From Candidatus Hadarchaeales archaeon (lineage in GTDB: Archaea > Hadarchaeota > Hadarchaeia > Hadarchaeales > Hadarchaeaceae), in assembly GCA_038823825.1 (NCBI GenBank), contig JAWBCC010000004.1:1-32000 (forward strand): a stretch of DNA of 32,000 nt, in the 5' to 3' direction. Both the position numbers and the translations under genes were made by a program. The notes beneath the pieces were generated by a model that searched no databases, was not told the DNA's origin, and saw only the letters and a program-made list of their open reading frames with translations. This document shows positions 1 through 13,651 of the stretch, in pieces. Within the stretch, counting starts at the first letter, position 1; each line of letters begins with the position of its first letter.

Positions 1-479
1 GAAGGATAGATAGCTCCTTCCTCGTAAACTGTCTCCCCAGAGAAGGCACACTTGGCTTCAGCGACCTCAAACTTGTTCAGTCCTATATGTCTTCTATCAC
101 CCAATCCATAGCTTCCAAACTGCCGGAGGGAAAGCAAAACGTGTGGAAGATATCGCGAATATTCTCCGAGGAGAAGTAGTTTGACCTCAATTTCTGCTCC
201 TTCTTTGAAATCCATAGGCTCTCCAAAGAATGGAGGAATGAAGATGATGGGACGTGGTGGGGGACTTTTTCCTTTTTTTGCATATGGATTCTCATAAGCT
301 GCGTAGAATAGACAATTCTCCCTAAACTTACAATCCTCACACTCATGCATGGGTCGGTAACAAACGATCTTCCTCAGATGTATTCCAAATCCACCTCTAA
401 AAGCGGATCCCATCCAGTAAGGTAAACTAGTGGGCCTTTGAAAGCGAAGCCGTAAGATCAAGGAAGTTAACTTCAGCAC
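1..479 (-). CDS. cas6: Cas6-family crRNA endoribonuclease (RAMP), N-terminal part only; gene runs off the window start
   Basis: Absent from the ORF track because it has no in-window stop. My minus-strand translation in the frame of ATG 413 is open from ~585 down to position 1. It reads ..LKLTSLILRLRFQRPTSLPYWMGSAFRGGFGIHLRKIVCYRPMHECEDCKFRENCLFYAAYENPY..PRPIIFIPPFFGEP..VKLLLLGEYSRYLPHVLLSLRQFGSYGLGDRRHIGLNKFEV. This is the GSxxRGxFG / C-x2-C / CxxY block I associate with PF10040-type Cas6. Start is uncertain (GTG 479, TTG 482 or ATG 413). The listed ORF 83..346 is the wrong frame of the same DNA. Confidence 0.6.
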   Translation of the reverse strand, partial: MLKLTSLILRLRFQRPTSLPYWMGSAFRGGFGIHLRKIVCYRPMHECEDCKFRENCLFYAAYENPYAKKGKSPPPRPIIFIPPFFGEPMDFKEGAEIEVKLLLLGEYSRYLPHVLLSLRQFGSYGLGDRRHIGLNKFEVAEAKCAFSGETVYEEGAIYP

Positions 480-588
480 CAAGAAAAAAGAGAGGGGAAG
501 TAGAAAAAAGGTTTTGGGATAGCGGTTCGGAGGTCCATCCTCTTCACAAATATCTCCTTGGAAATTAAGAGGAAAATTCCTCAAATTT

Positions 589-1380
589 TTATGACATCCT
601 CGGCCTTCTCCTTTCGCAGACTTTTCCTCCGCCATATAATCCTAATCTCATGAAAGTTTTCCAAAGTAGAAGTCCCATAGGTGTTATCTCCAACTCATCT
701 CTCTTTCGCTCTATCCATCCAAGTCTTTCCGCTTCAGAAATCACATCCTTTGGGAATTCTCTTTCTAATTGTAGCAGGTGTGCTTTCATATTTCTACACA
801 TGTGATTCATTAATCTTTGGAATTTCTCTTTCCTTCTCAGCCGAACCGGCATAGCGGGGAGCCTTACCACCTCCCTAAAGGATTCATGAATATACAAGAC
901 TGGAGCTCCGATCCCAGGCAAGTTGGAAGCCAAAAGCGCTATAGCAGTTTCAGGTTTGAATCCACCAGTTGCGTGGACGTAAACTGTGTCGTTTTGGAGA
1001 TAATGCGCCCTTATCAATTCTACAACCTTTTCAAAAAGTTTGGCCAATCCATGACGGAAGTTCTTTGGATCTCCGAGCCCGCTGATTTCCACCGATTCCA
1101 CGTAAATTCTCAATTTTAGTTGAGACAAAAAACTTTGAAGAATCTTTGCGCAGAGTCTCCCTTCCTCTGTGTCAGAGTGTAGCAGATACACGTAGTGCTG
1201 TTTGTCTTTCTTTTCCTCCAAGAGGGGAAGAAGTGTGTTCAATTCGGCACTGGCTTTTCTAGGATCTCGTTTGACAAAAGAGAGAAGTTCCCCCTCTGAG
1301 GGCTCTTTTCCTATTTCCCTTCTCACATTCGCTAGTAGGGAGGTTCCTGTGGTCACTATGTGGGCATTTATCGTCAACAT
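589..1380 (-). CDS. CARF-domain protein with C-terminal winged-helix-like region (APE2256/Crn1/Csa3-like; ring nuclease or cOA-responsive regulator)
   Basis: 263-aa ORF. N-terminal TTGTSLL and later ATGGFKPE are the two signature ligand-binding loops of CARF Rossmann domains. The Ser/Lys positions resemble those reported as catalytic in Crn1 ring nucleases. The C-terminal ~70 aa (GWIERKRDELEITPMGLLLWK) look like a wHTH. It sits between cas6 and csx1. Confidence 0.6.
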   Translation of the reverse strand: MLTINAHIVTTGTSLLANVRREIGKEPSEGELLSFVKRDPRKASAELNTLLPLLEEKKDKQHYVYLLHSDTEEGRLCAKILQSFLSQLKLRIYVESVEISGLGDPKNFRHGLAKLFEKVVELIRAHYLQNDTVYVHATGGFKPETAIALLASNLPGIGAPVLYIHESFREVVRLPAMPVRLRRKEKFQRLMNHMCRNMKAHLLQLEREFPKDVISEAERLGWIERKRDELEITPMGLLLWKTFMRLGLYGGGKVCERRRPRMS

Positions 1381-1422
1381 TTTTTATCTACCAAGAGGGT
1401 TATTAAAGATTGAGTTTAAACA
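1381..1422. promoter_or_regulatory. 42-bp divergent promoter region between the CARF-wHTH gene and csx1
   Basis: Only 42 bp separate the two divergent start codons. It contains TTTTTTATC (1380-1389) and TTATTAAAG (1401-1409) A/T boxes. Spacing implies leaderless or near-leaderless mRNAs in both directions. Confidence 0.3.
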
Positions 1423-2724
1423 ATGCGATCCATCCTGATATCCAGCTGGGGAAAGCCTTGGAGAACAGGGGGAGAATTCAGTTGGGAGAAGGTGGAATAC
1501 AGGCTGAAGGAAATCTCAAAGACCTCTAGGAGTTCTCTCCCCGTCCTCGTCGAACACACCAAACCAGAGAGGATAGTGATAGTGGTTTTGGACACTGTTG
1601 CAGAGAAAGTATGCTCAGACTACCAGAAACTCTGTAAAATGGTGGAGAAGCGTTACCTCGACTTCATACAAAAGGAGCTCGAAATCTCGGAGGAAGTGAA
1701 AGTGATTGTTGCTCCTGGTGTTGGAAACTTTAAGCTGAAGTTTAAGGGAGAGATGATGGATTTTTACCACTATGTCTTTTTCGAGCTCTCGAGAGAGTTG
1801 ATAGGACTGGAAAAACAATGTGAAGTTCATCTTGACATCACTCACGGGTTGAACTTCGCCCCAGTTCTTCTTCATGAAGCTTTGGAGCACATCCTTGGTA
1901 TTCTAGCGTACACCAAAAACATTAAGTTTTCCATCTACAATGCTGAACCTTTTATTCCGGGAACTAGGAAAAAATCATCCTTAACAATACACCGTATTGA
2001 ATATGGGGACGTGTATCCCAGCTTGGGCCCTAATAGAGTAGGCGGGAAAGGAGAAGCCCGCTTTCTCGCGGTCAGAGAGGAACATAAAAAGGATACAGAA
2101 TTTTGTAAAAAAATTTCAAAAGTCGCCAAAGTTTCCAATAGCAAAGAACTCAATGCCTTTCTCAGTGGAATAGTGAACGGCCTCCCGCTTTGCCTTTACA
2201 CCTTTTGTCCCGATCCTCAACGGCTGGAGAAAAAGTTGTCTTCGGCCGTGAAAGAGTGGAGGAAAAACGTGGAAATAAGATTCGGAGAAGTTGAGAGGAA
2301 AGTAAGCTTCACCCCTGATTTCACAAATTGCGTGAAGCTTTGGCTCGCTGCCAAGTCCTTTAACATCAAAAGGAAAGAAGCTGTAGTTCTGGAAGAGCTG
2401 AAAGAAAAGATGAGAAAGATATTTGGGTATGAGCGTTCGAAAGAGGCATTGATCTCCCATGAACTAGCAAAGATAAAGGAGGAAGCGGAAGCTAAGAAAA
2501 AAGAACTTAACAAATGGAAGTTGCTCAGAACTCTCTTTTCTAGTGAACAAATCTCTCCTTCCTTCGACCGGCGCAACTTTTTGGCACATGCTGGATTAGA
2601 GTATAACGTCACGGAACTGCGGTACTCAGAGAAGCTGGAGCTTCGATACAGAAAAAATCAACGGAAGGAAATAGCGAGCCATCTGGAAGGATTGCTCCAC
2701 AAAAAAGACGGGGCTTCCGGTTGA
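1423..2724 (+). CDS. csx1: Csx1-family CARF-HEPN ribonuclease (cOA-activated effector)
   Basis: 433-aa ORF. The N-terminal CARF part has the Csx1-typical DITHGLNF motif. The C-terminus carries the HEPN R-x4-H motif RNFLAH (R384..H389, nt 2572-2589). It lies adjacent to a type III effector operon. Confidence 0.75.
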   Translation: MRSILISSWGKPWRTGGEFSWEKVEYRLKEISKTSRSSLPVLVEHTKPERIVIVVLDTVAEKVCSDYQKLCKMVEKRYLDFIQKELEISEEVKVIVAPGVGNFKLKFKGEMMDFYHYVFFELSRELIGLEKQCEVHLDITHGLNFAPVLLHEALEHILGILAYTKNIKFSIYNAEPFIPGTRKKSSLTIHRIEYGDVYPSLGPNRVGGKGEARFLAVREEHKKDTEFCKKISKVAKVSNSKELNAFLSGIVNGLPLCLYTFCPDPQRLEKKLSSAVKEWRKNVEIRFGEVERKVSFTPDFTNCVKLWLAAKSFNIKRKEAVVLEELKEKMRKIFGYERSKEALISHELAKIKEEAEAKKKELNKWKLLRTLFSSEQISPSFDRRNFLAHAGLEYNVTELRYSEKLELRYRKNQRKEIASHLEGLLHKKDGASG

Positions 2725-3232
2725 GTTCCCGAAAGGGCTTCCCTCCTCACCCTTCGATTTCTTGGAGCTGATCAAGTACCAGCTAATCCTTCTCGTGAAC
2801 GAATACGTTGGATGAAAGGAAGATCTCAGATTTTTCTTGCAAGGGGAGCGGGAGGATTGTTGAGAGCAAACTCGTGAGGCTTCCTGACAGGTCGATGAGA
2901 TCAGGAAAAGGGGAGTTGCAAGGGTAGGTGGGAACCGCAGAGTATCACCGAGAAAATCGGCGAGGTCGGCGCTGGTTGCTTTCGGTTGGAAAGGTTCTGG
3001 GGGCCGGATCCAAGTTCTCCTTTGGAATGGATTTCTTTGAATTCGGCCAACCAAGTAACATCACAAGCAATACTTTCTGACCTCGCGGTAACCACCTTTC
3101 TGCTCACCTTTGGATGGAGTCAACCTCTAACCTTTTCCTTATTTTCTCTAATAAATAAGTCTTGAAAGAGTTAGAAGAGTACTAGGCTGCCTTTCCGGAT
3201 CCTTCCGTCCCATAGGGTTAAAGGGAGCCGGG

Positions 3233-3342
3233 ATTGCAATAGAGGATCCCTGAAACTGGGAATTGAAAGCCATCCAGGCTGGTTGTTCTCCATTTTTTAT
3301 CAACTGTTGCAATGGAGGATTCCCTGGAAATGGGATTAAAAG
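3233..3342 (+). CRISPR. Degenerate mini-array: psi-repeat (3233-3269), 36-nt psi-spacer (3270-3305), psi-repeat (3306-3342)
   Basis: ATTGCAATAGAGGATCCCTGAAACTGGGAATTGAAAG and GTTGCAATGGAGGATTCCCTGGAAATGGGATTAAAAG are both 37 nt. Both align to the reverse complement of the main repeat, GTTGCAGTGAAATGCCCCTGAAAATGGGGATTGAAAG. The first matches 27/37 ungapped and 20/22 in its 3' half. Spacing is 36 nt, and the hairpin is preserved by a compensatory C-G to T-A change. See finding. Confidence 0.7.
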
Positions 3343-3499
3343 CTCGTTATCAGCAGAGGATCGATGATGAGGCGAGATTACAAGCTTCGCCCCGTCTGCC
3401 AAGCGTTATAGCAAAGACCCTGAAAGTTAAGGAATAGAAGAGTCGCCATGAGTGATTGGGGTTTTAGACTTTTGAGAAATTTGAAACCTGAAACGTAAG

Positions 3500-3510
3500 T
3501 TTTTTTAAGG
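3500..3510 (+). promoter_or_regulatory. TATA-like box of the effector operon
   Basis: TTTTTTTAAGG is centred ~23 nt upstream of the cas11 ATG (3528), consistent with a leaderless or very short-leader archaeal transcript. Sequence pattern only. Confidence 0.3.
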
Positions 3511-3527
3511 ATAGCACTAAATACTAA

Positions 3528-3932
3528 ATGATGCCTCCAACAGAGGAGGATTTGATAAACTGGGGTACCGAAATAGGAACTTTAGCCTTCTCCGAGAAGA
3601 TAGAAAAGAGCCAGCTCGAAAAGCTGATTGCTTCACTTGAAAGCGTGAAAGATCCTCGTCTCGCTCTATATGTAACAGCTGCGTTTGCTTTAAGGCAGTC
3701 CCAGCGAGAAGAGCGAGGGAAGGCTCTTCTCACGAGGAAATTCGCGGAGCGGGTGGCATCTATTCTTCAACAAATTTACGAAGCCAACGGAAGCAAAACA
3801 GAAGCTCGCAAAATGCTTAGGTTTGCAAAGTGGATTGTGGAGGCCTCCACAGGGAGGCAGATCAGACCAGTTAAAACCCTTAAAGAATTCATTGACAGTT
3901 TGTCTGTGGAGGATGTAGGTGCCAGATTATAG
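3528..3932 (+). CDS. cas11: Type III small subunit Cas11 (Csm2/Cmr5-like)
   Basis: 134-aa, apparently all-helical protein and first gene of the operon. KSQLEKLI, LALYVTAAFALRQ and MLRFAKWIVEA resemble Csm2 family blocks. Size and position fit a small subunit. Confidence 0.55.
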   Translation: MMPPTEEDLINWGTEIGTLAFSEKIEKSQLEKLIASLESVKDPRLALYVTAAFALRQSQREERGKALLTRKFAERVASILQQIYEANGSKTEARKMLRFAKWIVEASTGRQIRPVKTLKEFIDSLSVEDVGARL

Positions 3933-4602
3933 AGACTTCGACACGCTTAAGAGTCTTACCAAAATCAGGGGGACCCTTATAAACCATACTCCGCTTCGCG
4001 TGGGGACGGGAAGGGAGGCGCCTCTTGAGGCAACGGTTGACATAGCCGTTTTCAGAGTGGGGGAAGTGCCCTGTATACCAGGATCAAGTCTGAAGGGGGT
4101 TTTACGGACCGCGGCGGAGACCCTCGCACGCTCTTTTGGAATTACCCCCCATCCTCCCTGGGACCTTCCGAAAGCCGAGAAGAAAGGTGACTTTTGCGAG
4201 ATTTGCGGGATTTTTGGGAATCAGGAGTTAATGAGCCATATAAAGGTCTATGACGCATATCCTCAAGGTGAAGCACAAATCTTCGTCAAGCCTGGAGTCG
4301 CGATTGATAGAAATTTCGGAAGCGTAGCACACGGATCTTTTTTCGAGGAGGAGTTGGTGGCCCCGGGTTGCAAGTGGAACTTTCGGGTAGATATCATAAA
4401 CATCCCGGTTTTCGAGGAGAGTACGGACAAGAGAGGGAAAATCTTGGAGACGCTCTTCCGTATGTTCACAACTACGGGACTGCATGTCGGGGCGAGGAGC
4501 ACAGTGGGGTCCGGCCTAACAGTTTTGGAGGACGTGAATTACGCCACGTATATCTTAACCGAAAAAGGGCTCGTTTTGAAAAAAGAGGGTAGAGTGCAAT
4601 AA
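3919..4602 (+). CDS. cas7: Cas7-family RAMP (Csm3/Cmr4-like backbone subunit)
   Basis: GTG start overlaps the cas11 end by 14 nt. Motifs are PLRVGTG..TVDIAVFRVGEVPCIPGSSLKGVLR, CEICGIFG and a C-terminal G-rich loop GARSTVGSG. An Asp (VDIAV) sits where the catalytic Asp of Csm3/Cmr4 lies. Confidence 0.8.
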   Translation: MPDYRDFDTLKSLTKIRGTLINHTPLRVGTGREAPLEATVDIAVFRVGEVPCIPGSSLKGVLRTAAETLARSFGITPHPPWDLPKAEKKGDFCEICGIFGNQELMSHIKVYDAYPQGEAQIFVKPGVAIDRNFGSVAHGSFFEEELVAPGCKWNFRVDIINIPVFEESTDKRGKILETLFRMFTTTGLHVGARSTVGSGLTVLEDVNYATYILTEKGLVLKKEGRVQ

Positions 4603-4603
4603 C

Positions 4604-5425
4604 ATGCAATGGATTTCACATGACAACATTCGTAGGGAAACTTCCTTCAACTTTATTCTGACAAACGAGGCTCCTTTAAGAATCGGATGCGGCGGAGAGC
4701 CTCCACTTGAAGCACTATCCGATCTCGCTGTTCTTAGAATTCCTTCCGAGTTCGGGGAAGTGCCATATATTCCGGGATCCAGCCTGAAGGGAGTCTTCAG
4801 AAGTTTTTGCGCGAAACTCCTTGCGCGGAAGGGGCTGAGGGTCTGCGAGTTGTCCGGAAATAGATGCGAGGTTGGGCGAGAGAGGAACATCGAACAGTTT
4901 GCGGAGCAGGCTTGTCTTCTGTGTAAAATTTTTGGTACGCAAGGGTACAGGGGGCTTGTGAGCTTTTCTGATGCCTTTCCTTGGAATGGCCAGCAGCTCT
5001 ATCCGTTCAGACTGGGTGTAAGAAGGGGAATTCGAATCGGCAGGAAATCCGGAAGAGCACAGAACCTTTTTGATGTTGAGTATGTAGAGCCGGGTGCAAA
5101 GTTTAAGTCAGGCATTCGTTGCCTCAACCTACCTAACTTTGCGCTCGGCCTGCTCTCGAGGGCCCTCCTTTGTCTACACGAGGGGGAGGTGAAGGTTGGA
5201 GGGTTCAAGACGAGGGGCTTCGGAGAGGTGAGGCTGGAAGAGGTCGAGATCAGAAATCGGGATGTCGGGGGAACCGGGAAGAAGATGACCGCTCTGGACC
5301 CGCAGGACAGAGAGATCGAGGTCGGGGAAATGGAAGTGGAGAACGATTGGTTAGTGGCAAGCGGGGATGCGGCTTGGAAGATTCTGAAGAAGCTGGCTCA
5401 ATGGTGGGAGGAAGCCAAGCTATGA
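4604..5425 (+). CDS. cas7: Cas7-family RAMP (Csm3/Cmr4-like), second paralog
   Basis: Motifs are PLRIGCGG..LSDLAVLRIPSEFGEVPYIPGSSLKGVFR, CLLCKIFGTQG and GGFKTRGFGEV. It starts 1 nt after the previous stop. Confidence 0.8.
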   Translation: MQWISHDNIRRETSFNFILTNEAPLRIGCGGEPPLEALSDLAVLRIPSEFGEVPYIPGSSLKGVFRSFCAKLLARKGLRVCELSGNRCEVGRERNIEQFAEQACLLCKIFGTQGYRGLVSFSDAFPWNGQQLYPFRLGVRRGIRIGRKSGRAQNLFDVEYVEPGAKFKSGIRCLNLPNFALGLLSRALLCLHEGEVKVGGFKTRGFGEVRLEEVEIRNRDVGGTGKKMTALDPQDREIEVGEMEVENDWLVASGDAAWKILKKLAQWWEEAKL

Positions 5426-6333
5426 GGAGGTTCAACGTAATCCAAGAACAGCCGAGGACGAGGGGAAGGTTTACGGGACTTTGCGGGGACCTCCAAGTTT
5501 CCATCGAGGTGGTAAGCGGACTTCATGTGGGCTCGGGTCAACTTCCAATAAAAGTAGATGAGGAGAAACTAGCCCAGACCATAGAACTTGACTACTGGTC
5601 CTTTCCCTTGGTCAATGAGAGGGCTGTCATACCGGGCTCAAGCGTGAAAGGGAACGTCAGGGCAAGGCTGGAACTTTCCTTTAAGGAAAAGGATGGCTGG
5701 TTCAGATCTTGTTTCACGGAGACGGGAAGGTTCCAAAAAGGCCCCTCGAAGGACGGGTCTTGGAGGCATTTCAAGATATGGGAGCCGTCGGTGAAGCAGA
5801 ATAGAATCGTTCCTAGGGAAGGAAAAGGGTCGCAATGCGATTTCGTGAAAGGAAAGCAGGAGAGAGTCTGCCTTCTCTGTGATCTTTTTGGGACAACCGG
5901 TCTGATCGGTCTGCTCGAGTTCAGCGACTTTATTCTCAGCGAAGGCAGGCTCTCCCCCCAGAAATTTAAGTACGGGTTAAAATTGTTGGTTGCGGAGATC
6001 GGCTCAGTTTTCACTGGGAAGGTGTGGTTCATGAACCTGAAGCCGGAAGAATTGGGACTGGTTTTATGGGGAATGGGTCTCAGGGATGGGAGAATCGGGA
6101 GGGGAGTTCTCATGGGAAGGCTGAAGTATGTGGGGCCGATTGGAAAGGTAAGATACAGACTAGACACATTTAAATTATCCCAGTTCTCGGAGCAACTGAA
6201 GTTGGATTCGGTTGAGATCAAAGCAGGCGACGAGGTGCAGGCCGACGACCAGCTCGCGAAGGAGCTTGTGGAGTTGGCAAGGCGCACGTATGGTGGAGAG
6301 CTTGAGGATATAGATGAGGTGAGCCTAAAATGA
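5422..6333 (+). CDS. Cas7-type RAMP, third paralog with large insertion
   Basis: I trim the listed ORF 5170..6333 to ATG 5422, which forms an ATGA overlap with the upstream stop at 5423-5425. The 84 codons upstream are low-complexity and overlap cas7-2 out of frame. Motifs are LHVGSG, VIPGSSVKGNVRARLE and CLLCDLFGTTG. Confidence 0.7.
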   Translation: MRRFNVIQEQPRTRGRFTGLCGDLQVSIEVVSGLHVGSGQLPIKVDEEKLAQTIELDYWSFPLVNERAVIPGSSVKGNVRARLELSFKEKDGWFRSCFTETGRFQKGPSKDGSWRHFKIWEPSVKQNRIVPREGKGSQCDFVKGKQERVCLLCDLFGTTGLIGLLEFSDFILSEGRLSPQKFKYGLKLLVAEIGSVFTGKVWFMNLKPEELGLVLWGMGLRDGRIGRGVLMGRLKYVGPIGKVRYRLDTFKLSQFSEQLKLDSVEIKAGDEVQADDQLAKELVELARRTYGGELEDIDEVSLK

Positions 6334-8933
6334 CCGCAAACATTTTCCAGAAAGTTGAGTGGCCGTATCCGGTTTACAAGTCCTTCATCGTTCCCTACCG
6401 GGAAAACGGCACTCTGTCGGTCAGGAAATTGAGCGAGAAAGATGTCGAGGAATGGGGGAAGACCCTAGAGCTTGCAAAGGACTTCATCACGCGGGCAGTC
6501 AACGCACTGGGGGTGAAGGAAGAGGCGAGGCTCGAACTCGTCGGCGATTTGCTGGTTCTCTTCCTTAAAGTTCCCCTTCTCCGCGAGCCGATCTCGCTTC
6601 TCCCAAGCCCGCTTAAAGCCTATCTCGCTTGGAAGCTCGCGCTCGAATCGAGACTTAAGGAGTTCAGAGACAACCCTATTGAATTCGCCAGTCATCTGTA
6701 CACGATTTACAGGGAGTTCGGGCCGCAGCTCGAGGAATTGTTGAAAATCGTCGAGGAGGCTAGGGAAAAGGTTGAGAGATGCTGGTTCCATCTGCCTGCG
6801 GACACCCGCCCAGTAGCCAACTGTGCGGGTCTCATCCCGCACCTGCTCACGACTTCTGCGCTCTCCTGGGCTCTCGCCATACAGCGGGGTTTGGAAAGGA
6901 GAAAAGCGGCGTTGATCAGGCTTTCGGCTCTCCTCCACGATGTCGGCAAGCCCTTCGCCCCAGAGGAGCATGTCACGCGTTCAGCTGAAATCGCGAGATG
7001 GTTTACCGACTTCTTGGAGCCGGGCGAAAGGGAGGAGATCGTGAAGTTCGTGATGGATCACCACCGGCCCGAAACCAAGGAAGGAGAAATAATTAGGAAG
7101 GCGGACATATTGTCCTCCGCTACAGACCGGATAAGGGGATATCTTCAGGAGATCATCTCGGAAAGGCTTGGAAGACGACCGGAAATCGAGGAGCTTGAGG
7201 GCTGGGATTTCTGGGTAGAGCTCGAAAAAAATTCTCCTGGCTCCATAAGGTCGCTCAGCGAGGAATTCGTCGAGAAGGTTCGGAGGGATACAGGGGAGGG
7301 GGAAAATCTTTTCGTCAGAACCCTCCCGCTCCCACCCGATTACAAATACGCCCCGGTGGGGGAGATCGGGTTTGGATGCGTCGATTTGGGAGGGATCCAG
7401 AGATTTATCCGAACCCCAACCGAGCTGAAGGCGGTCGCGGCCGCCAGCTACGTGATCGAAACGGCGGTTTTGGTTCACATTCCAGCCTTCATCCAGCGAG
7501 AGCTTAAAGAGCTTGAGCAGGTCTGGTTCCCGATGGAGGCGTTCCTGTATTCCGGCGGGGGCAACCTGTATTTCGTCTTCCCGAAGAAACTGGAGGGAAA
7601 GATCAAGAAGGCTGTCGAGAAGTACACCAGTGTTCTTGCAAAAAACAAAATTTCCCTTGAGCTCAGAATGGCAGCTACCCCGTTTACAGCTTTCTTCCCG
7701 GATCTGCTCAAACATATGGCGGGGGAGATGGGCCTCCAGAAGATCTCCCCGCCTAAAGAGACGCAGGTGGAGAGGGGCGATGTGAAAAAGTGCAAGTGCT
7801 GCTTTACAAGGATTGCGGAGGTCGGAGACTACTGTAAGGTTTGCAACCAGTTAATAGATCTCGGGGGCAACTTTCATTTCAGAGCAAGGTGGGAAACGGA
7901 GATCTCGCTCCTGGAAAGAAAATCGCCCGCCCAGATTTTCGGCAGCTGGGAGGACGCTTCAGCCAGACTGATGGAAATTATCGCCGGTCACAATCTGGAG
8001 GAGATTCGAAGGGGTGTTGAGCAGAGAAACTATGCCGTTCTGAAGGTGGATGGGGTCTGCATGGGAGCTTTCATGGCCTCAGCCATCTCCATAACAGACG
8101 CCTGCGAGAGGAGCGCGAGAATAGACATCTCCCTCAAGAAGGCCTTTGAGGATTCTGCCCGCGAGCTTTACACTGCCCTGCGCGAGAAGGATGAGGAAGA
8201 AGCGAGAAAGTCCATCGCGAGACTGGAACTCGGACTGCTGTACATGGGAGGGGACGACTCCCTCGCGCTGATGAGCTCCTGGTACGCACCCATCTTCACC
8301 CATTCGCTCGTCTCCAGGTTCAGGACTTATATGGGGGAGGTCAGGGGACTTTCGGCTGGGCTGGCGGCGGGGGGTGCGAAGACGCCGGTCTGGTCCCTGA
8401 TAGATGCTGCAGATGAGCTGGAAAGAGAAGCGAAGAGCAGGACGAGGGAAATGGTGAGTCAAGGGGCCATTTGCTACGATATTTGCGAGGTTCCTCTCTC
8501 CTCCACCGCCGTCCGTCACCGGAGAAAAGAGCTGGAAGAGAGGAAGATGACTCTTCAGCCCTTCGTGGTTGAAAATGGAGGGAGGCTGGGCGAGATCCTT
8601 CAAAAGCTTTCCGGTGGGAGCTCGCGCGGAGACTGGTACAGGTGGGCACTGGAAACCTCGAGGGAAGAAGATAATGATGCTAAGAAGCTTGCGAAAAGAG
8701 TTAGGGCTTGCATCAAGGAGGCTGTTGGGGCTGCAAAGGGAATTCTGGGTGAGGAGGCGGACAAAGAGCTGCTGAACGAGATTTCAAAACTCTACATGAG
8801 AAGACAGCAGGTTAGGTTGGAAAAGAGAGAGGAATGGAGGGTGGCTGTGGATGCGTGCGCGGAGGGGTGGGGAAAGGTGGCTTTCGGCGACATTGAATTG
8901 CTGATCAAATTTGCACTGGGGGGAATTACGTGA
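6330..8933 (+). CDS. cas10: Cas10 large subunit with HD nuclease domain and intact GGDD cyclase Palm domain
   Basis: 867 aa. HD-type motifs are H171 (LIPH), H203-D204 (LLHDVGKP), H244-H245 (MDHH) and D259 (KADILSSATDR). Palm 1 is GFGCVDLGGIQRFI (D352). The Zn finger is CKCC..x..CKVC. GGDD lies at aa 640-643 (nt 8247-8258). It has an ATGA overlap with the upstream gene. Confidence 0.9.
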   Translation: MTANIFQKVEWPYPVYKSFIVPYRENGTLSVRKLSEKDVEEWGKTLELAKDFITRAVNALGVKEEARLELVGDLLVLFLKVPLLREPISLLPSPLKAYLAWKLALESRLKEFRDNPIEFASHLYTIYREFGPQLEELLKIVEEAREKVERCWFHLPADTRPVANCAGLIPHLLTTSALSWALAIQRGLERRKAALIRLSALLHDVGKPFAPEEHVTRSAEIARWFTDFLEPGEREEIVKFVMDHHRPETKEGEIIRKADILSSATDRIRGYLQEIISERLGRRPEIEELEGWDFWVELEKNSPGSIRSLSEEFVEKVRRDTGEGENLFVRTLPLPPDYKYAPVGEIGFGCVDLGGIQRFIRTPTELKAVAAASYVIETAVLVHIPAFIQRELKELEQVWFPMEAFLYSGGGNLYFVFPKKLEGKIKKAVEKYTSVLAKNKISLELRMAATPFTAFFPDLLKHMAGEMGLQKISPPKETQVERGDVKKCKCCFTRIAEVGDYCKVCNQLIDLGGNFHFRARWETEISLLERKSPAQIFGSWEDASARLMEIIAGHNLEEIRRGVEQRNYAVLKVDGVCMGAFMASAISITDACERSARIDISLKKAFEDSARELYTALREKDEEEARKSIARLELGLLYMGGDDSLALMSSWYAPIFTHSLVSRFRTYMGEVRGLSAGLAAGGAKTPVWSLIDAADELEREAKSRTREMVSQGAICYDICEVPLSSTAVRHRRKELEERKMTLQPFVVENGGRLGEILQKLSGGSSRGDWYRWALETSREEDNDAKKLAKRVRACIKEAVGAAKGILGEEADKELLNEISKLYMRRQQVRLEKREEWRVAVDACAEGWGKVAFGDIELLIKFALGGIT

Positions 8934-9544
8934 TAGAGTTTGAGGTCGAGGTCAGACCTGTCGGGCTCTTCACGGTTGGTGGGGGGACGGTCGAGGTCTT
9001 CGGGCCAGACGTTCCCTTCATAAAGGAGAGGGGAAAGATTTTCATTCCAGGTTCGACCTTCAAGGGTCTACTGAGGTCGGCTGCATCAAGAGTAGCTGAA
9101 ACGTACGGGTTTTCCTCGTGTGGCAACATAAGGCCAGAGGAACTCTGCGGATCCTGCGACGTCTGTAAACTTTTCGGATCCATAAGATCGCAGGGAAAAC
9201 TCATCGTAGGGAATTTGGAGGCTGTCGAAGGATATGAACTCCTCTGGTTCACGAGGGTCAGGATTAACGACAAAAGCAACAAGGCCGAGGAAGGGGGACT
9301 CTTCACCCAGGAGCACTCATATGGAGGGAGCTTCAGGGGGATGATAAGGGTCATGGAGGATGGGGCCGAGCTTCTGGGACTCCTGCTCCTCGCACTTGCG
9401 GAACTCAGAACGGGGAGGGCGGGAAGAAGATCCCTCCTCGACCTGAAGATAGGCAAGACAGCCGGGCTTCAGGGGAAAGTGGAGGGAAGATGGCTCAAAC
9501 TTGTGAATGAACTCGAGAAATTTTTGTGGGAGGGGAAAATATGA
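8930..9544 (+). CDS. cas7: Cas7-family RAMP (Csm3-like), fourth paralog
   Basis: GTG start in a GTGA overlap with the cas10 stop. Motifs are FTVGGG..GPDVPFIKERGKIFIPGSTFKGLLRSAA and CGSCDVCKLFGS. Confidence 0.75.
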   Translation: MIEFEVEVRPVGLFTVGGGTVEVFGPDVPFIKERGKIFIPGSTFKGLLRSAASRVAETYGFSSCGNIRPEELCGSCDVCKLFGSIRSQGKLIVGNLEAVEGYELLWFTRVRINDKSNKAEEGGLFTQEHSYGGSFRGMIRVMEDGAELLGLLLLALAELRTGRAGRRSLLDLKIGKTAGLQGKVEGRWLKLVNELEKFLWEGKI

Positions 9545-10614
9545 AGTTCTACGAGGTCCGGATTGAGCTTAGATCTCCGGCAATCATAACCTCCCGCAGG
9601 ACCGAGCACGGATTTAAGTCAGCTCTCGAGTTTATACCCGGAACAACCTTGAGGGGGGCAATTCTATCCTCCCTTTACTATCACGATAAAATCTCAAGGA
9701 ACGAGCTCGAAAGAGAGGCGAATGAACCCTCCCTCATCTGCACGCCTGCCTATCCACTCGTCGACGGGCAGCAAAGCTGGCCTGCCCATCCCTTCTTCTT
9801 TAAGTGTAAACTATGCAAACCGGAGAAGAATTCTTACGAGAATCGGGGAAGGGAGGCTCGCATAAAGATTGAGAAGGGGGAAGAACCAACCATTCCGACA
9901 AGCTGCAGATATGGTCATGTGAGCCTCGAAAGCCTGCATCCGGGACCAGTTCTTCCAAACGGTAAGAGAGTGAGAGTCAGTTTTACCTCTTCCGTGTGTG
10001 CTGGTGTAAACAAGGACAGGGGCTCGGTTGAGGGGGGCATGCTCTACGAGTACGATGCGCTTGAAAGCGGGCAAATGTTCTGGGCCTATCTCGCCACCCC
10101 GTACGAAATCCCTAATCCACTGGAAATCTGGATCGGAAGAGGGGTGACGAGAGGATTCGGGGAGGCCCGGCTGAGTCTATGGGAGCTGGACATGAAAAAG
10201 CTCGAAGAAGACTGCAGAAAGGCTTCCACCGATGGGATTCTTGTGTTGTATGCTCTCTCCCCCCTTCTGGGAGGCGGACAGAGAGCTACCCCTTTCCCGA
10301 CCGTGATTGAGCTAGGACCGATAGGAAATAGAATCGGTAGCCCTGCTGAGGGTTCCCTTCGGATAGAAAAAGTTTATGGAAGAGCTGGGCCATACGAGGC
10401 GGGATGGGACATGCTCAGGGGGAGGAGCAGGCCGACCTTTTACGGTGTGTGTTATCCGGGGAGCATCCTGAGGGCAAGAGTGGTTGGGAATGTGAGTTGG
10501 GAGGCCATTGCCTCTTTGGGAATCCTGGGAACCGTGGAGAAATGGGGGGACGAGACATCGTGCTGCGTGAACCAGCTCCTCCCGCTGGCGGGGCATCCGG
10601 TGGAGGGAACATGA
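9541..10614 (+). CDS. Cas5-group RAMP (Csx10/Cmr3/Csm4-like partner of Cas10)
   Basis: Trimmed to ATG 9541 (ATGA overlap). Motifs are FIPGTTLRGAILSSLY and WIGRGVTRGFGEARL (glycine-rich loop). At 357 aa with two RAMP-like halves, its position after cas10/cas7 fits a Cas5-like subunit. The Csx10 assignment is from memory of family features, not a search. Confidence 0.55.
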   Translation: MKFYEVRIELRSPAIITSRRTEHGFKSALEFIPGTTLRGAILSSLYYHDKISRNELEREANEPSLICTPAYPLVDGQQSWPAHPFFFKCKLCKPEKNSYENRGREARIKIEKGEEPTIPTSCRYGHVSLESLHPGPVLPNGKRVRVSFTSSVCAGVNKDRGSVEGGMLYEYDALESGQMFWAYLATPYEIPNPLEIWIGRGVTRGFGEARLSLWELDMKKLEEDCRKASTDGILVLYALSPLLGGGQRATPFPTVIELGPIGNRIGSPAEGSLRIEKVYGRAGPYEAGWDMLRGRSRPTFYGVCYPGSILRARVVGNVSWEAIASLGILGTVEKWGDETSCCVNQLLPLAGHPVEGT

Positions 10615-11489
10615 GCCATCTATTGCCGTTGAAAAATAGAGTGATTGGGAGGCTGGAGTTTGAAGGTAGATCGCTCTTGCATATTGGGACCGGGGGAGAG
10701 GAGGTCAGAAGGGAAATCCTTAAAATCGGGGAGAAAGTCCTGATTCCTGCATCTTCCGTCAAGGGTGCCCTCCGAAAGCTAGTTGAGCAGGTTGCGAGGA
10801 CCATAGAAGTTGTGGACTTTCCAGATGTGTTCAGGATAGGGGAAGGGAAGCTTGAGTGCAAGGAGAGAACCGATGAGGCAATCCAATGGTTACTGCAACA
10901 AAGGGGGATCCTCTCCTTGCTACGCTCGCTTGGCTTAGAGGATGAGCTAGAAAGGCTGCAAGTAAAAAGTGAAGAGGATTGGGAGAAGCTTAAACCACTG
11001 CCAGAAAAGCGTGAAACATTAAAGAAGATTGCGGAGGAGTACGCGACGGTAAGACATCCCCTGTATAGGCTTATGGGAGGGCAGAAAATCGCCTCGAAGC
11101 TAAGATTTCTAGATATTCCCTTAGAAGCAAGCATCCAAGAGAAAGCTGGAGTTGGGATCGACAGAAAGAGCGGGAGGGCGAGCGAGCACCACCTATACTT
11201 CTTGGAATCCTTGAAGCCTTCGAGGGTGAGCATATGGTTTATAGCCGACAATCTCCAGCCTGCCAGCTTGGAGGCCAAACTGCTCGCAGGGACTCTTAGT
11301 TTGATTAAGTCGGTGGGGCTTTCGCTTGGAGCGAGGAAGAGCGTAGGGATGGGTGAGTTAGAGCTGAAGGATGGCGAATTTTGGATTGCCGACCTGGAGA
11401 GAGATGATGGGACAAAGCTGGCTAATCCCTTCACTGGAGAGAGGCTGGACTTGGACAGTTTTATAAATTGGCTGAATCCTGGTACGTGA
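10611..11489 (+). CDS. Cas7-like RAMP, fifth paralog (Csm5/Cmr6/Cmr1-like capping subunit)
   Basis: Trimmed to ATG 10611 (ATGA overlap). Motifs are LHIGTGG, VLIPASSVKGALRK, GVGIDRKSGRASEHHLY and GARKSVGMGEL. No Asp sits at the Csm3 catalytic position. It has a long helical insertion (aa ~70-150). Confidence 0.65.
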   Translation: MSHLLPLKNRVIGRLEFEGRSLLHIGTGGEEVRREILKIGEKVLIPASSVKGALRKLVEQVARTIEVVDFPDVFRIGEGKLECKERTDEAIQWLLQQRGILSLLRSLGLEDELERLQVKSEEDWEKLKPLPEKRETLKKIAEEYATVRHPLYRLMGGQKIASKLRFLDIPLEASIQEKAGVGIDRKSGRASEHHLYFLESLKPSRVSIWFIADNLQPASLEAKLLAGTLSLIKSVGLSLGARKSVGMGELELKDGEFWIADLERDDGTKLANPFTGERLDLDSFINWLNPGT

Positions 11490-12312
11490 TTTTCGGGGAT
11501 TTAAGCGGGAATTCTTCGGGGCCTCTGAGGAAGCTGGTCGGGAGCTAAAGGGGCATCGAAGGAGCTCATAAAGGAGAAACTTAGGGCTCAGGAAGCAAAG
11601 GATATGCGGTTTGAGAGCAACGGTGAATCGGTTGAGGTACGTAGGATCATGAAGAAATATCTGTATAAACTTTGGGAGAGGCTAGGGAAAAGTTTCAGCC
11701 ACCTTGCGATGAAGATTGGGTGAAGGAGGTATATTTGTCGAAAAATTGGTACGACTTTCTATGCGCCTAAAGACAAGGAAATTTGGGTGAACTTAATCGC
11801 TGAACAAATCAAGTCAATTTCGCTCTTCTCTTGGGTGGTGTTTCACAGCCACTGCGGCGAGGTACTACTGTATTTTCAACACTACATCTCCCTTCTCCAT
11901 CCCGAATAACTCGAGTTGAAAGACGTTGCCATGGCGAGCACGGTCGAAAAGATTTTGAGCAAGAGGTTGGAACGAATTCCCATTTTTCGAGCTACAAGTA
12001 GGGGAAACCCTTATGGAGCTGCGTGAGGGGTTTGAGAGAAGAGAGAGCAAGAAGGGACGGTGAAAATCGTCGGAAGGGAAGAAATGATACCAAGGTTTCG
12101 GAGATTTCTGGCCTTCGAAAGAGTTAGAAAAGGACCCTTTTTGATAAGGTTGCGAGCCTCATGAATAAAATGAGTCGGAAACTTCAGCCAGTGAATGGAT
12201 TGGGCGAGAAATAAGGAAATCCTGAGCGAGTTGTAACTATACTCGATCCTCTCGCTCTTCACGAAGTAATACTCGACCTCTACAAGCCCCTCTTCGAGGT
12301 TATGGCCTTCCC

Positions 12313-13449
12313 CTCCGAAAAGTCTCCTTCAGGGGCATCCTACTAAACTTAGCACAATCTCCTCCGCTTGGATATCCGTATTGGGACTTTCAATCCCCAT
12401 TTTCAGGGGCATTTCACTGCAACTTTGGGACAAGAAGCGAAAATTTTCTTCCACCTGAACGCTTTCAATCCCCATTTTCAGGGGCATTTCACTGCAACAT
12501 TTACTGAAGTGTTAAGTTCTTTAGGTTATAAAATCTTTCAATCCCCATTTTCAGGGGCATTTCACTGCAACAACAGGGAAATTGAGGGATGACATTTATC
12601 TCTACGTCTTTCAATCCCCATTTTCAGGGGCATTTCACTGCAACCGTTAAGTCAAACGCAAACGCAACGGTCCCGCTAACGCTTTCAATCCCCATTTTCA
12701 GGGGCATTTCACTGCAACTTTGATACCAACAAGATGAGATATGCGACTATTGTGGTCTTTCAATCCCCATTTTCAGGGGCATTTCACTGCAACAATTATT
12801 ACTTCACCGCCAGCTCCTCCGTCGATGTGCTTTCAATCCCCATTTTCAGGGGCATTTCACTGCAACTTTCTATGACAATATGAACACTTTGCGAGAAAAC
12901 AGCTTTCAATCCCCATTTTCAGGGGCATTTCACTGCAACATTACCTCCGCACGCGCAGGATAGTATATAACTATATTACTTTCAATCCCCATTTTCAGGG
13001 GCATTTCACTGCAACTCACAAAACTCTCTCCTATGATAGCCTGTTATTTTATCTTTCAATCCCCATTTTCAGGGGCATTTCACTGCAATTGAAATACTAA
13101 ACAGAATACCTTTCAAAATCAAGCTTTCAATCCCCATTTTCAGGGGCATTTCACTGCAACGCGTTCGAAGGGAATAACGTCGGCAGGAATAGTTTCCTTT
13201 CAATCCCCATTTTCAGGGGCATTTCACTGCAACAATCGTGAGAGCAAAAGAAGGACTTCAAATTAGTTCCTTTCAATCCCCATTTTCAGGGGCATTTCAC
13301 TGCAACTTAAAGAGGATAGAAGCAGAGCTTTTGGAATTAAGCTTTCAATCCCCATTTTCAGGGGCATTTCACTGCAACAAGATGCTCTCGGAGATTGCAA
13401 AAGCTTAAATATCTTTCAATCCCCATTTTCAGGGGCATTTCACTGCAAC
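12313..13449 (-). CRISPR. CRISPR array: 15 intact 37-nt repeats (12387-13449) plus one degenerate terminal repeat (12313-12348); 15 spacers of 34-39 nt
   Basis: The plus-strand repeat is CTTTCAATCCCCATTTTCAGGGGCATTTCACTGCAAC. Its reverse complement, GTTGCAGTGAAATGCCCCTGAAAATGGGGATTGAAAG, ends in the canonical archaeal 8-nt tag ATTGAAAG just after a CCCC-N7-GGGG hairpin, so transcription is from the minus strand. Repeat 10 (13053-13089) ends in T instead of C. The decayed copy at 12313-12348 (~22/37 identity, 38-nt spacing) marks the trailer end. Confidence 0.95.
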
Positions 13450-13577
13450 CCCCGCTCTTCTTTTCATGTTTGGCCGGCTTTCCTTAAAAATCTATGTGAA
13501 GACTTTTTGAACTTCGATTTTTGCATAGGGGGTTTATAAAGAAGTTCACAAAGTTTCGCCTTTTACCGAAAGCCTAG
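13450..13577 (-). promoter_or_regulatory. CRISPR leader with TATA-like boxes
   Basis: 128 bp lie between the first repeat (in the minus-strand sense) and the 3' end of tRNA-Phe. It contains TTTATAAA (13533-13540) and TTAAAAAT (13485-13492). The leader side is inferred from the tag orientation and the trailer-end repeat decay. Confidence 0.5.
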
Positions 13578-13651
13578 TGCGGAGGGGGGGATTTGAACCC
13601 CCGACATTCGGATCTTCAGTCCGACGCTCTCCCAGGCTGAGCTACCTCCGC
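13578..13651 (-). tRNA. tRNA-Phe (anticodon GAA)
   Basis: Hand-folded as GCGGAGG-TA-GCTC-AGCCTGGGA-GAGC-G-TCGGA-CTGAAGA-TCCGA-ATGTC-GGGGG-TTCAAAT-CCCCC-CCTCCGC-A. It is 74 nt and CCA is not encoded. Confidence 0.9.

Follow-up and report, generated by a model that had tools for sequence, protein, structure and literature searches.

Why should two divergent copies of a CRISPR repeat stand at the head of the effector operon of a type III-D-like locus that carries a regular array further downstream? The locus lies in a 32,000-nt stretch of DNA (hereafter the window) from a Candidatus Hadarchaeales archaeon MAG, in which the pair of repeats, with the 36 nt between them, had been predicted to form a mini-array encoding a regulatory RNA of the CreA or CreR kind. 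The following features of the window are relevant to this question.

1–413, minus strand: 5' part of a divergent, intact cas6 paralogue, the gene of which runs past the left edge of the window
1423–2724, plus strand: csx1, the gene of a CARF/HEPN ancillary nuclease (TIGR01897, E 1.6e-74)
2745–3062, plus strand: cas6 pseudogene remnant, the frameshifted last third of the orthologous cas6 (from alignment with L003 and L001)
3233–3269, plus strand: psiR1, a degenerate CRISPR repeat with the hairpin TCCC-TGAAACT-GGGA and an intact ATTGAAAG tag
3270–3305, plus strand: psi-spacer of 36 nt, with a T6 run at 3293–3298
3306–3342, plus strand: psiR2, a repeat more degenerate than psiR1, with the hairpin shifted by +1 and the tag ATTAAAAG
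3497–3512, plus strand: TATA-like box TTTTTTTAAGG of the effector operon, downstream of the mini-array and some 20 nt ahead of the operon's ATG
3528–11489, plus strand: type III-D-like effector operon (NCBIfam and Pfam matches; gene calls on L026)
12307–13449, minus strand: main CRISPR array, with 15 repeats (12387–13449) and a degenerate sixteenth, terminal repeat at 12307–12348
13450–13576, minus strand: leader of the main array, with TATA-like boxes, adjoining tRNA-Phe

The orthologous loci used for comparison fell into four groups: the window with L013, L026 and L027 (99–100% identical), L003 with L004, L009 and L030, L001 with L002, and L005 with L006, L008 and L015. No further relatives with a RAMP1 identity between 77% and 58% were present in the protein database.

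The coordinates of both repeats and their separation by 36 nt were exactly as predicted. Compared without gaps with the sense strand of the main repeat, GTTGCAGTGAAATGCCCCTGAAAATGGGGATTGAAAG, psiR1 is identical at 27 and psiR2 at 23 of the 37 positions (10 and 14 mismatches, respectively), and on both strands of the window these were the top two matches outside the array, with the next best reaching 22/37. A covariance model (R1) was trained on five repeats from bona fide arrays of this repeat family, with the psi copies excluded. It gave 40.2 bits (E~5e-8) for psiR1 and 26.3 bits (E~1e-4) for psiR2; outside the regular array repeats, the next match, at 15.5 bits, was the degenerate repeat that terminates the main array. 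The Rfam family CRISPR-DR47 matches psiR1 at 26 bits, i.e. under its gathering score, and the pair was not reported by TRF, as expected from the prediction that standard repeat finders would miss it. The period of 73 nt lies within the range of the main array (71–76 nt), as does the length of the psi-spacer (34–39 nt in the main array). The unit thus comprises two direct repeats of the locus's own repeat family, placed at a typical spacer length. A further repeat-like sequence at 3405–3440 (psiR3), spotted by eye, reached only 8.5 bits (E~3) with the R1 model and was not counted.

A chance similarity of two unrelated sequences to the repeat, for which nothing speaks except the shortness of the sequences, is refuted by the E-values of an independently trained model, by the correct spacing and shared orientation of the two copies, by their rank as the best two non-array matches in the window, and by the existence of an orthologous copy in L003. 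As had been proposed, psiR1, the psi-spacer and psiR2 form a unit that is genuinely derived from CRISPR, with two repeats around one spacer, far beyond chance.

The repeats of this unit are also a distinct variant, again in agreement with the prediction. The two copies are identical to each other at 25 of 37 positions without gaps (31/37 with gaps), and the near-identity of repeats that characterizes a canonical array, such as the main array, in which 14 repeats are identical and the other one has a single mismatch, is not found in them. The 4-bp hairpin of the family is the minimum-free-energy structure for both psiR1 and psiR2. The claim that the hairpin is placed directly before the tag holds for psiR1, where both are intact, but not for psiR2, where the hairpin is shifted by one position and its closing A is at the same time the base with which the mutated tag begins (ATTAAAAG instead of ATTGAAAG). 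Similarly, replacement of the outer C-G pair by T-A is indeed seen in both copies, but the same T-A closing pair is common to the L003 orthologue, which indicates one inherited variant and not two independent compensations.

The unit is oriented as the effector operon and is located 185 nt upstream of its ATG, as was originally noted. The operon comprises a 134-aa small-subunit-like gene, Csx7-type RAMP genes, an HD-Cas10 gene (6330–8933), a Csx10-like gene and a further RAMP gene. A Cas10 with an HD domain, a Csx10 Cas5-like protein and multiple Csx7-type Cas7 RAMPs, which together define type III-D, are therefore all represented, in a consistent gene order (matches to TIGR02581, TIGR02674 (weak, 27 bits), TIGR02578 and HD, all under curated cut-offs). 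The 134-aa protein matched no Pfam or NCBIfam family, and the designation cas11-like refers only to the position and size of its gene; a 100% identical protein is encoded in the Candidatus Hadarchaeales MAG contig JAWBDA010000002.1 (GCA_038822855.1). The amino-acid identity of this gene (3528–3932, plus strand) to its L003 and L001 counterparts (79–81%) is lower than the nucleotide identity (85–89%) and no higher than the identity at four-fold sites (83–86%), which implies a dN/dS near or above 1, i.e. unusually fast evolution.

The degenerate terminal repeat at 12307–12348 fixes the polarity of the main array, the leader of which is on the right side, from 13450 onward. The gene of tRNA-Phe (13577–13651, minus strand) directly abuts this leader. 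The main repeat differs from the repeat of the sister lineages at 4 positions, all of them in the 5' half.

Immediately upstream of the mini-array, the locus has been rearranged. In the sister lineages, csx1 is followed by an intact cas6 and then by the small-subunit gene. The window has lost approximately 920 nt by a deletion that removed the csx1-cas6 spacer together with the first two-thirds of cas6, and the remnant, which retains about 87–88% nucleotide identity to the L003 cas6, is fused to the 3' end of csx1 (region 2697–3062). The same deletion is present in L013, a contig 99.4% identical. The paralogue beyond Cas_APE2256, on the opposite strand, is intact: the full gene (L026 6041–6883, minus strand; window position 1 corresponds to L026 6471) encodes 280 aa with AF_1859_N and Cas6 domains, and shares only 52% amino-acid identity with the Cas6 of L003 and L001. 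Destruction of the orthologous gene combined with the presence of this second, divergent one looks like a cas6 replacement.

A canonical array is preceded by a leader with a promoter adjoining its first repeat, and this the mini-array does not have. The 60 nt upstream of psiR1 did not significantly resemble any of the family's leaders (P>=0.14), while real family leaders match one another at P<0.001. A scan for sigma-70-type promoters, which is not relevant to archaea, detected no site upstream of psiR1. A TTAAAGG motif located 10–16 nt upstream of psiR1, common to the window and L003, resembles the local TATA boxes, and transcription of the mini-array from this motif is possible. The T6 run of the psi-spacer, a feature uncommon but not exceptional among real spacers (3/109), could act as an archaeal termination signal and give the transcript a defined 3' end. 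The A/T box TAATAAATAA (3149–3158), which had been put forward as an upstream element, is not conserved: the segment of about 50 nt that holds it (3137–3190) is missing in L003 and, in part, also in L001. Large indels are abundant between the cas6 stop and psiR1, and only small ones occur in 3343–3527.

The effector operon has a box of its own. The TATA-like sequence TTTTTTTAAGG is present in the window, L001, L003 and L005, i.e. in all four Hadarchaeales lineages, and probably represents the operon promoter; its distance of only about 20 nt from the ATG suggests a leaderless or short-leader mRNA.

These observations bear on the question of whether the unit is a still-working minimal immune array, in which an old spacer would be expressed by read-through or from a cryptic promoter against an unsampled virus or plasmid. 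The repeat-spacer-repeat geometry is canonical, psiR1 should be processable in principle, an intact cas6 paralogue is available in the genome, and the counterpart of the unit in L005 is a normal, leader-bearing small array. We nevertheless consider this reading unlikely, since the leader is absent, the repeats differ both from the main repeat and from each other, the orthologous cas6 has been lost to deletion and frameshifts and the Cas6 that remains shares just 52% identity with it, neither half of the spacer has a protospacer in IMG/VR, and, as described below, the unit is being lost in the sister lineages.

Comparison with these lineages was calibrated with the four-fold degenerate sites of six flanking genes, which are 72–87% identical between the window and L003 or L001, but only 47–60% identical when the window is compared with L005. 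For the segments of interest, the identities of window and L003 were as follows.

psiR1: 86–89%
psi-spacer: 83%
flanking non-coding DNA: 83–86%
cas6 pseudogene remnant: 88%

The identities of psiR1 and the psi-spacer are thus close to those of the flanks, the pseudogene and the four-fold sites, which means that the mini-array is no better conserved than neutral sequence. In addition, the whole L003 group (L003, L004, L009, L030) lacks a 27-nt segment which includes the last 23 nt of psiR2, with its hairpin and tag, and retains psiR1, the spacer and the first 14 nt of psiR2. In L001 and L002 the entire mini-array has been deleted. Every cas gene, cas6 included, is intact in both of these lineages. 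The original prediction had named loss or unconstrained decay of the element at related loci as evidence against itself, and truncation in one sister lineage and deletion in the other are what the alignment of the orthologous loci revealed.

Both lineages that retain the unit have an intact psiR1 hairpin and tag, and the 5 differences between them all lie outside the 8 stem positions, an outcome for which we calculate a chance probability of about 0.27. The two lineages are only about 20% diverged, which leaves the comparison of neutral identities with little power, and weak selection on the mini-array could hide behind such values. Taken as they stand, the alignments give no sign of maintenance of the mini-array by selection.

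How does the predicted regulatory function fare against this background? As a type III counterpart of CreR or CreA, the unit would be transcribed and cut by Cas6 at psiR1; the tagged product, taken up by the III-D complex, would bind or cleave a partly complementary host RNA (cas mRNA or toxin RNA) without activation of Cas10. The psi-spacer was compared with a range of possible targets. In an ungapped Watson-Crick scan of the window, the best site paired at 21/36 positions, which is within chance, and no match above the shuffle null was found in the promoter and 5' region of the operon (3343–3560), where the target of a CreR-type RNA would be located. When G:U pairs were tolerated, total pairing remained within the shuffle null, although a run of 21 pairs with the mRNA of a RAMP gene (5324–5359) exceeded mononucleotide shuffles. 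This duplex was rejected as a target: it contains only about 9 contiguous Watson-Crick pairs, the rest being G:U padding in a purine-rich coding sequence, and it is weakened by the substitutions in the L003 spacer against an unchanged target. The psi-spacer of the L003 lineage pairs at 23–24/37 positions with the csx10-like gene (L003 12728–12764; window 10371–10407, plus strand), with both ends matching; this too is within chance, and the pairing is not maintained between lineages, as the window's own spacer reaches only 18/36. An 11-mer match at the start codon of Cas_APE2256 (1378–1388, minus strand) is likewise within chance, with about 0.4 such matches expected.

Beyond the window, approximately 300 kb of related loci contained nothing protospacer-like for the psi-spacers. 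The few IMG/VR matches of the two 18-nt halves of the psi-spacer did not extend, and neither did those of the 18-mers of the L005 spacer. The search of related loci and viruses suggested in the original prediction thus yielded no match beyond chance. No co-variation of the psi-spacer with any of the candidate targets was found between lineages, and conservation of the unit together with its target in related loci, which is typical of CreR, was not observed. As regards toxins, an adjacent small toxin gene with a promoter matched by the psi-spacer, as in CreTA, was not found, and there is no complementary site nearby. The small ORFs at the unit (3171–3293, minus strand; 3312–3437, plus strand) are changed in frame or truncated in L003 and L001; those overlapping the unit, among them the 40-aa gene calls of L004, L009 and L030, show no conservation of frame and were regarded as spurious.

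Several properties of the unit remain in favour of a regulatory RNA: the intact hairpin and tag of psiR1, repeats that are degenerate as in CreA and CreR, the position at the head of the effector operon, the possible TATA-like motif TTAAAGG, the RAMP-gene pairing that exceeded mononucleotide shuffles, and retention in the L003 lineage of psiR1 and the spacer with loss of psiR2, which fits a guide needing the 5' handle only. Against these stand the shortness and instability of that pairing, the lack of a match in the operon promoter and 5' region, neutral conservation and deletion of the unit in L001 and L002 with intact cas genes, the lack of a conserved small toxin ORF nearby (the frames of the small ORFs differ between lineages), and the fact that the mini-array is not recurrent across the III-D family. 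Moreover, no functional type III crRNA-like regulator was found in the literature searched. The CreA/CreR-like role originally predicted, with neither a recognizable leader nor a target in the part of the genome and the viral sequences searched, is thus very unlikely. Were it true, RNA-targeting type III systems would join those with CRISPR-derived self-regulation (CreR/CreTA).

A related and highly improbable variant is that of a domesticated guide. In this case, an RNA of about 38 nt with the tag AUUGAAAG (from 3262), transcribed from the TTAAAGG promoter or by read-through, cut by Cas6 at psiR1 and ended at the T6 run, would silence, within the III-D complex, an endogenous or mobile-element RNA encoded elsewhere in the genome. 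This would be the first crRNA-like regulator or antitoxin acting through an RNA-targeting type III effector.

The hairpins and the T-rich tracts could also matter in themselves. As a structural or processing element, the unit would provide Cas6 sites (the hairpins) or terminators (the T-rich tracts), and would insulate csx1/cas6 transcription from the operon promoter or titrate Cas6. In the sister lineages the unit is placed directly between cas6 and the TATA box of the operon, T-rich tracts upstream of psiR1 accompany the T6 run of the spacer, and between the window and L005 the repeats seem to have been preserved better than the spacer (27–30/37, against about 53% for neutral sites). However, orthology of the window and L005 units is not demonstrable, the similarity of the L005 repeats is explained by an active array of the same repeat family with a leader of its own, and the deletion in L001 and L002 had no visible consequence. 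We therefore hold such a role to be very doubtful.

The origin of the unit becomes apparent when the III-D family is considered as a whole. In 8 of 12 other lineages, an ordinary CRISPR array is located about 60–750 nt (usually less than 500 nt) upstream of the cas11-like gene. It runs in the sense of the operon in six lineages (L005, L010, L011, L019, L032, L041) and in the opposite sense in L017/L018 and L035–L037; no upstream array was found in L012, L033, L038/L039 and L040. The clearest example is L032, in which repeats of the same family run toward the operon and end in a degenerate terminal repeat, followed within about 60 nt by a TATA-like box and the ATG. In the hadarchaeal lineage L005 (77% identity), the position corresponding to the mini-array is occupied by two good repeats and a possible third, with a canonical leader that is nearly identical to the leader of the downstream array of L005 and similar to that of the main array of L001 (P<0.001). 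This counterpart is a genuine small array. Homology of the psi-spacer to the L005 spacer was not significant (P=0.085 for the window, P=0.78 for L003), and it is for this reason that orthology of the two units is not demonstrable. The more specific idea that the mini-array is the trailer end of a larger array was dropped, as this is inseparable from a whole small array that lacks its leader and the upstream-leader homology was not significant.

The upstream array of L005 is composite (55–4650). It contains 54 repeats of one type, then a degenerate and a hybrid repeat, a 346-nt gap with a second leader, and the small array, whose repeats are of a second type, the one also seen in the array downstream of the operon. 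One III-D locus is thus served by two repeat families. In L001, a canonical leader with a single perfect repeat is placed beside cas4 in the adaptation module (4690–4790), and looks like an "empty", one-repeat array.

Taken together, the data are best explained if the mini-array is a vestigial remnant of the family-typical upstream CRISPR array, drifting neutrally and being deleted in the sister lineages, a reading to which, on the basis of these sequence comparisons, we assign a probability of roughly 0.67. According to this explanation, the mini-array would be what is left of the ordinary array that in this family is typically found just upstream of the small-subunit (cas11-like) gene, usually transcribed toward the operon. 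In the clade of the window, only two repeats and one spacer would have survived, with no recognizable leader, downstream of the position of the orthologous cas6. The remnant would have drifted at the neutral rate since before the sampled sister lineages split, and would since have been removed by deletions. Its descent from the upstream array is suggested by position, orientation and repeat family, and we infer that it now has no selected function. If read-through or a cryptic promoter transcribes the region, psiR1, with its Cas6-type hairpin and 8-nt tag, could still give rise to an orphan crRNA. An origin from an array would in itself be compatible with a function, by analogy with functional CreA and CreR, for which a derivation from degenerated mini-arrays is itself proposed.

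If the remnant is what we propose, the locus offers a well-documented case of CRISPR array death: the same unit is complete, half-deleted or gone in three close lineages, and a more distant one (L005) still has a leader-bearing small array at that position. It may also be a useful negative control for surveys of mini-arrays. Positional "conservation" among close relatives can reflect common descent, and should be calibrated against synonymous-site divergence before function is inferred.

The view that nothing comparable had been described for type III systems was inaccurate, since type III mini-arrays were already counted by Shmakov et al. 2023 (PMC10120712), who observed them beside 10–16% of type III loci (16% for III-D). 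These showed no positional conservation, no enrichment in Cas10 clades and no targets, and were judged "likely degraded, non-functional CRISPR repeats". The present unit, recognized here by covariance-model scores where those authors used a 16-bp BLASTN threshold, has the properties of such degraded mini-arrays: it is a repeat-like pair at spacer distance, separate from the main array and beside a III-D operon, for which neither a target nor conservation beyond common descent was detected, nor a position kept across the clade.

The unit also resembles CreA (the antitoxin of CreTA) and CreR. In the papers searched, the work on CreR, CreTA and crlRNA concerns types I and V; there, in types I and V-A, one or two degenerate repeats flank a psi-spacer inside the cas locus, much as they do here. 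Those guides direct DNA-binding effectors to a nearby promoter by partial, PAM-flanked complementarity and are conserved together with their target. In contrast, the effector encoded in the window is an RNA-targeting type III complex, no target, adjacent toxin or excess conservation was found for the unit, and sister loci have lost it. Another parallel is provided by the degenerate terminal (trailer-end) repeats of ordinary arrays, which are old and diverged from the consensus, e.g. the repeat at 12307–12348, the repeat that ends the L032 array and the part of the L005 array nearest to the operon, although in the present case the rest of the array is no longer attached. Unlike the mini-arrays of Shmakov et al. 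2023, the remnant is found not beside the main array but between the cas6 position and the effector operon, and its probable origin can be traced to the upstream array typical of the family.
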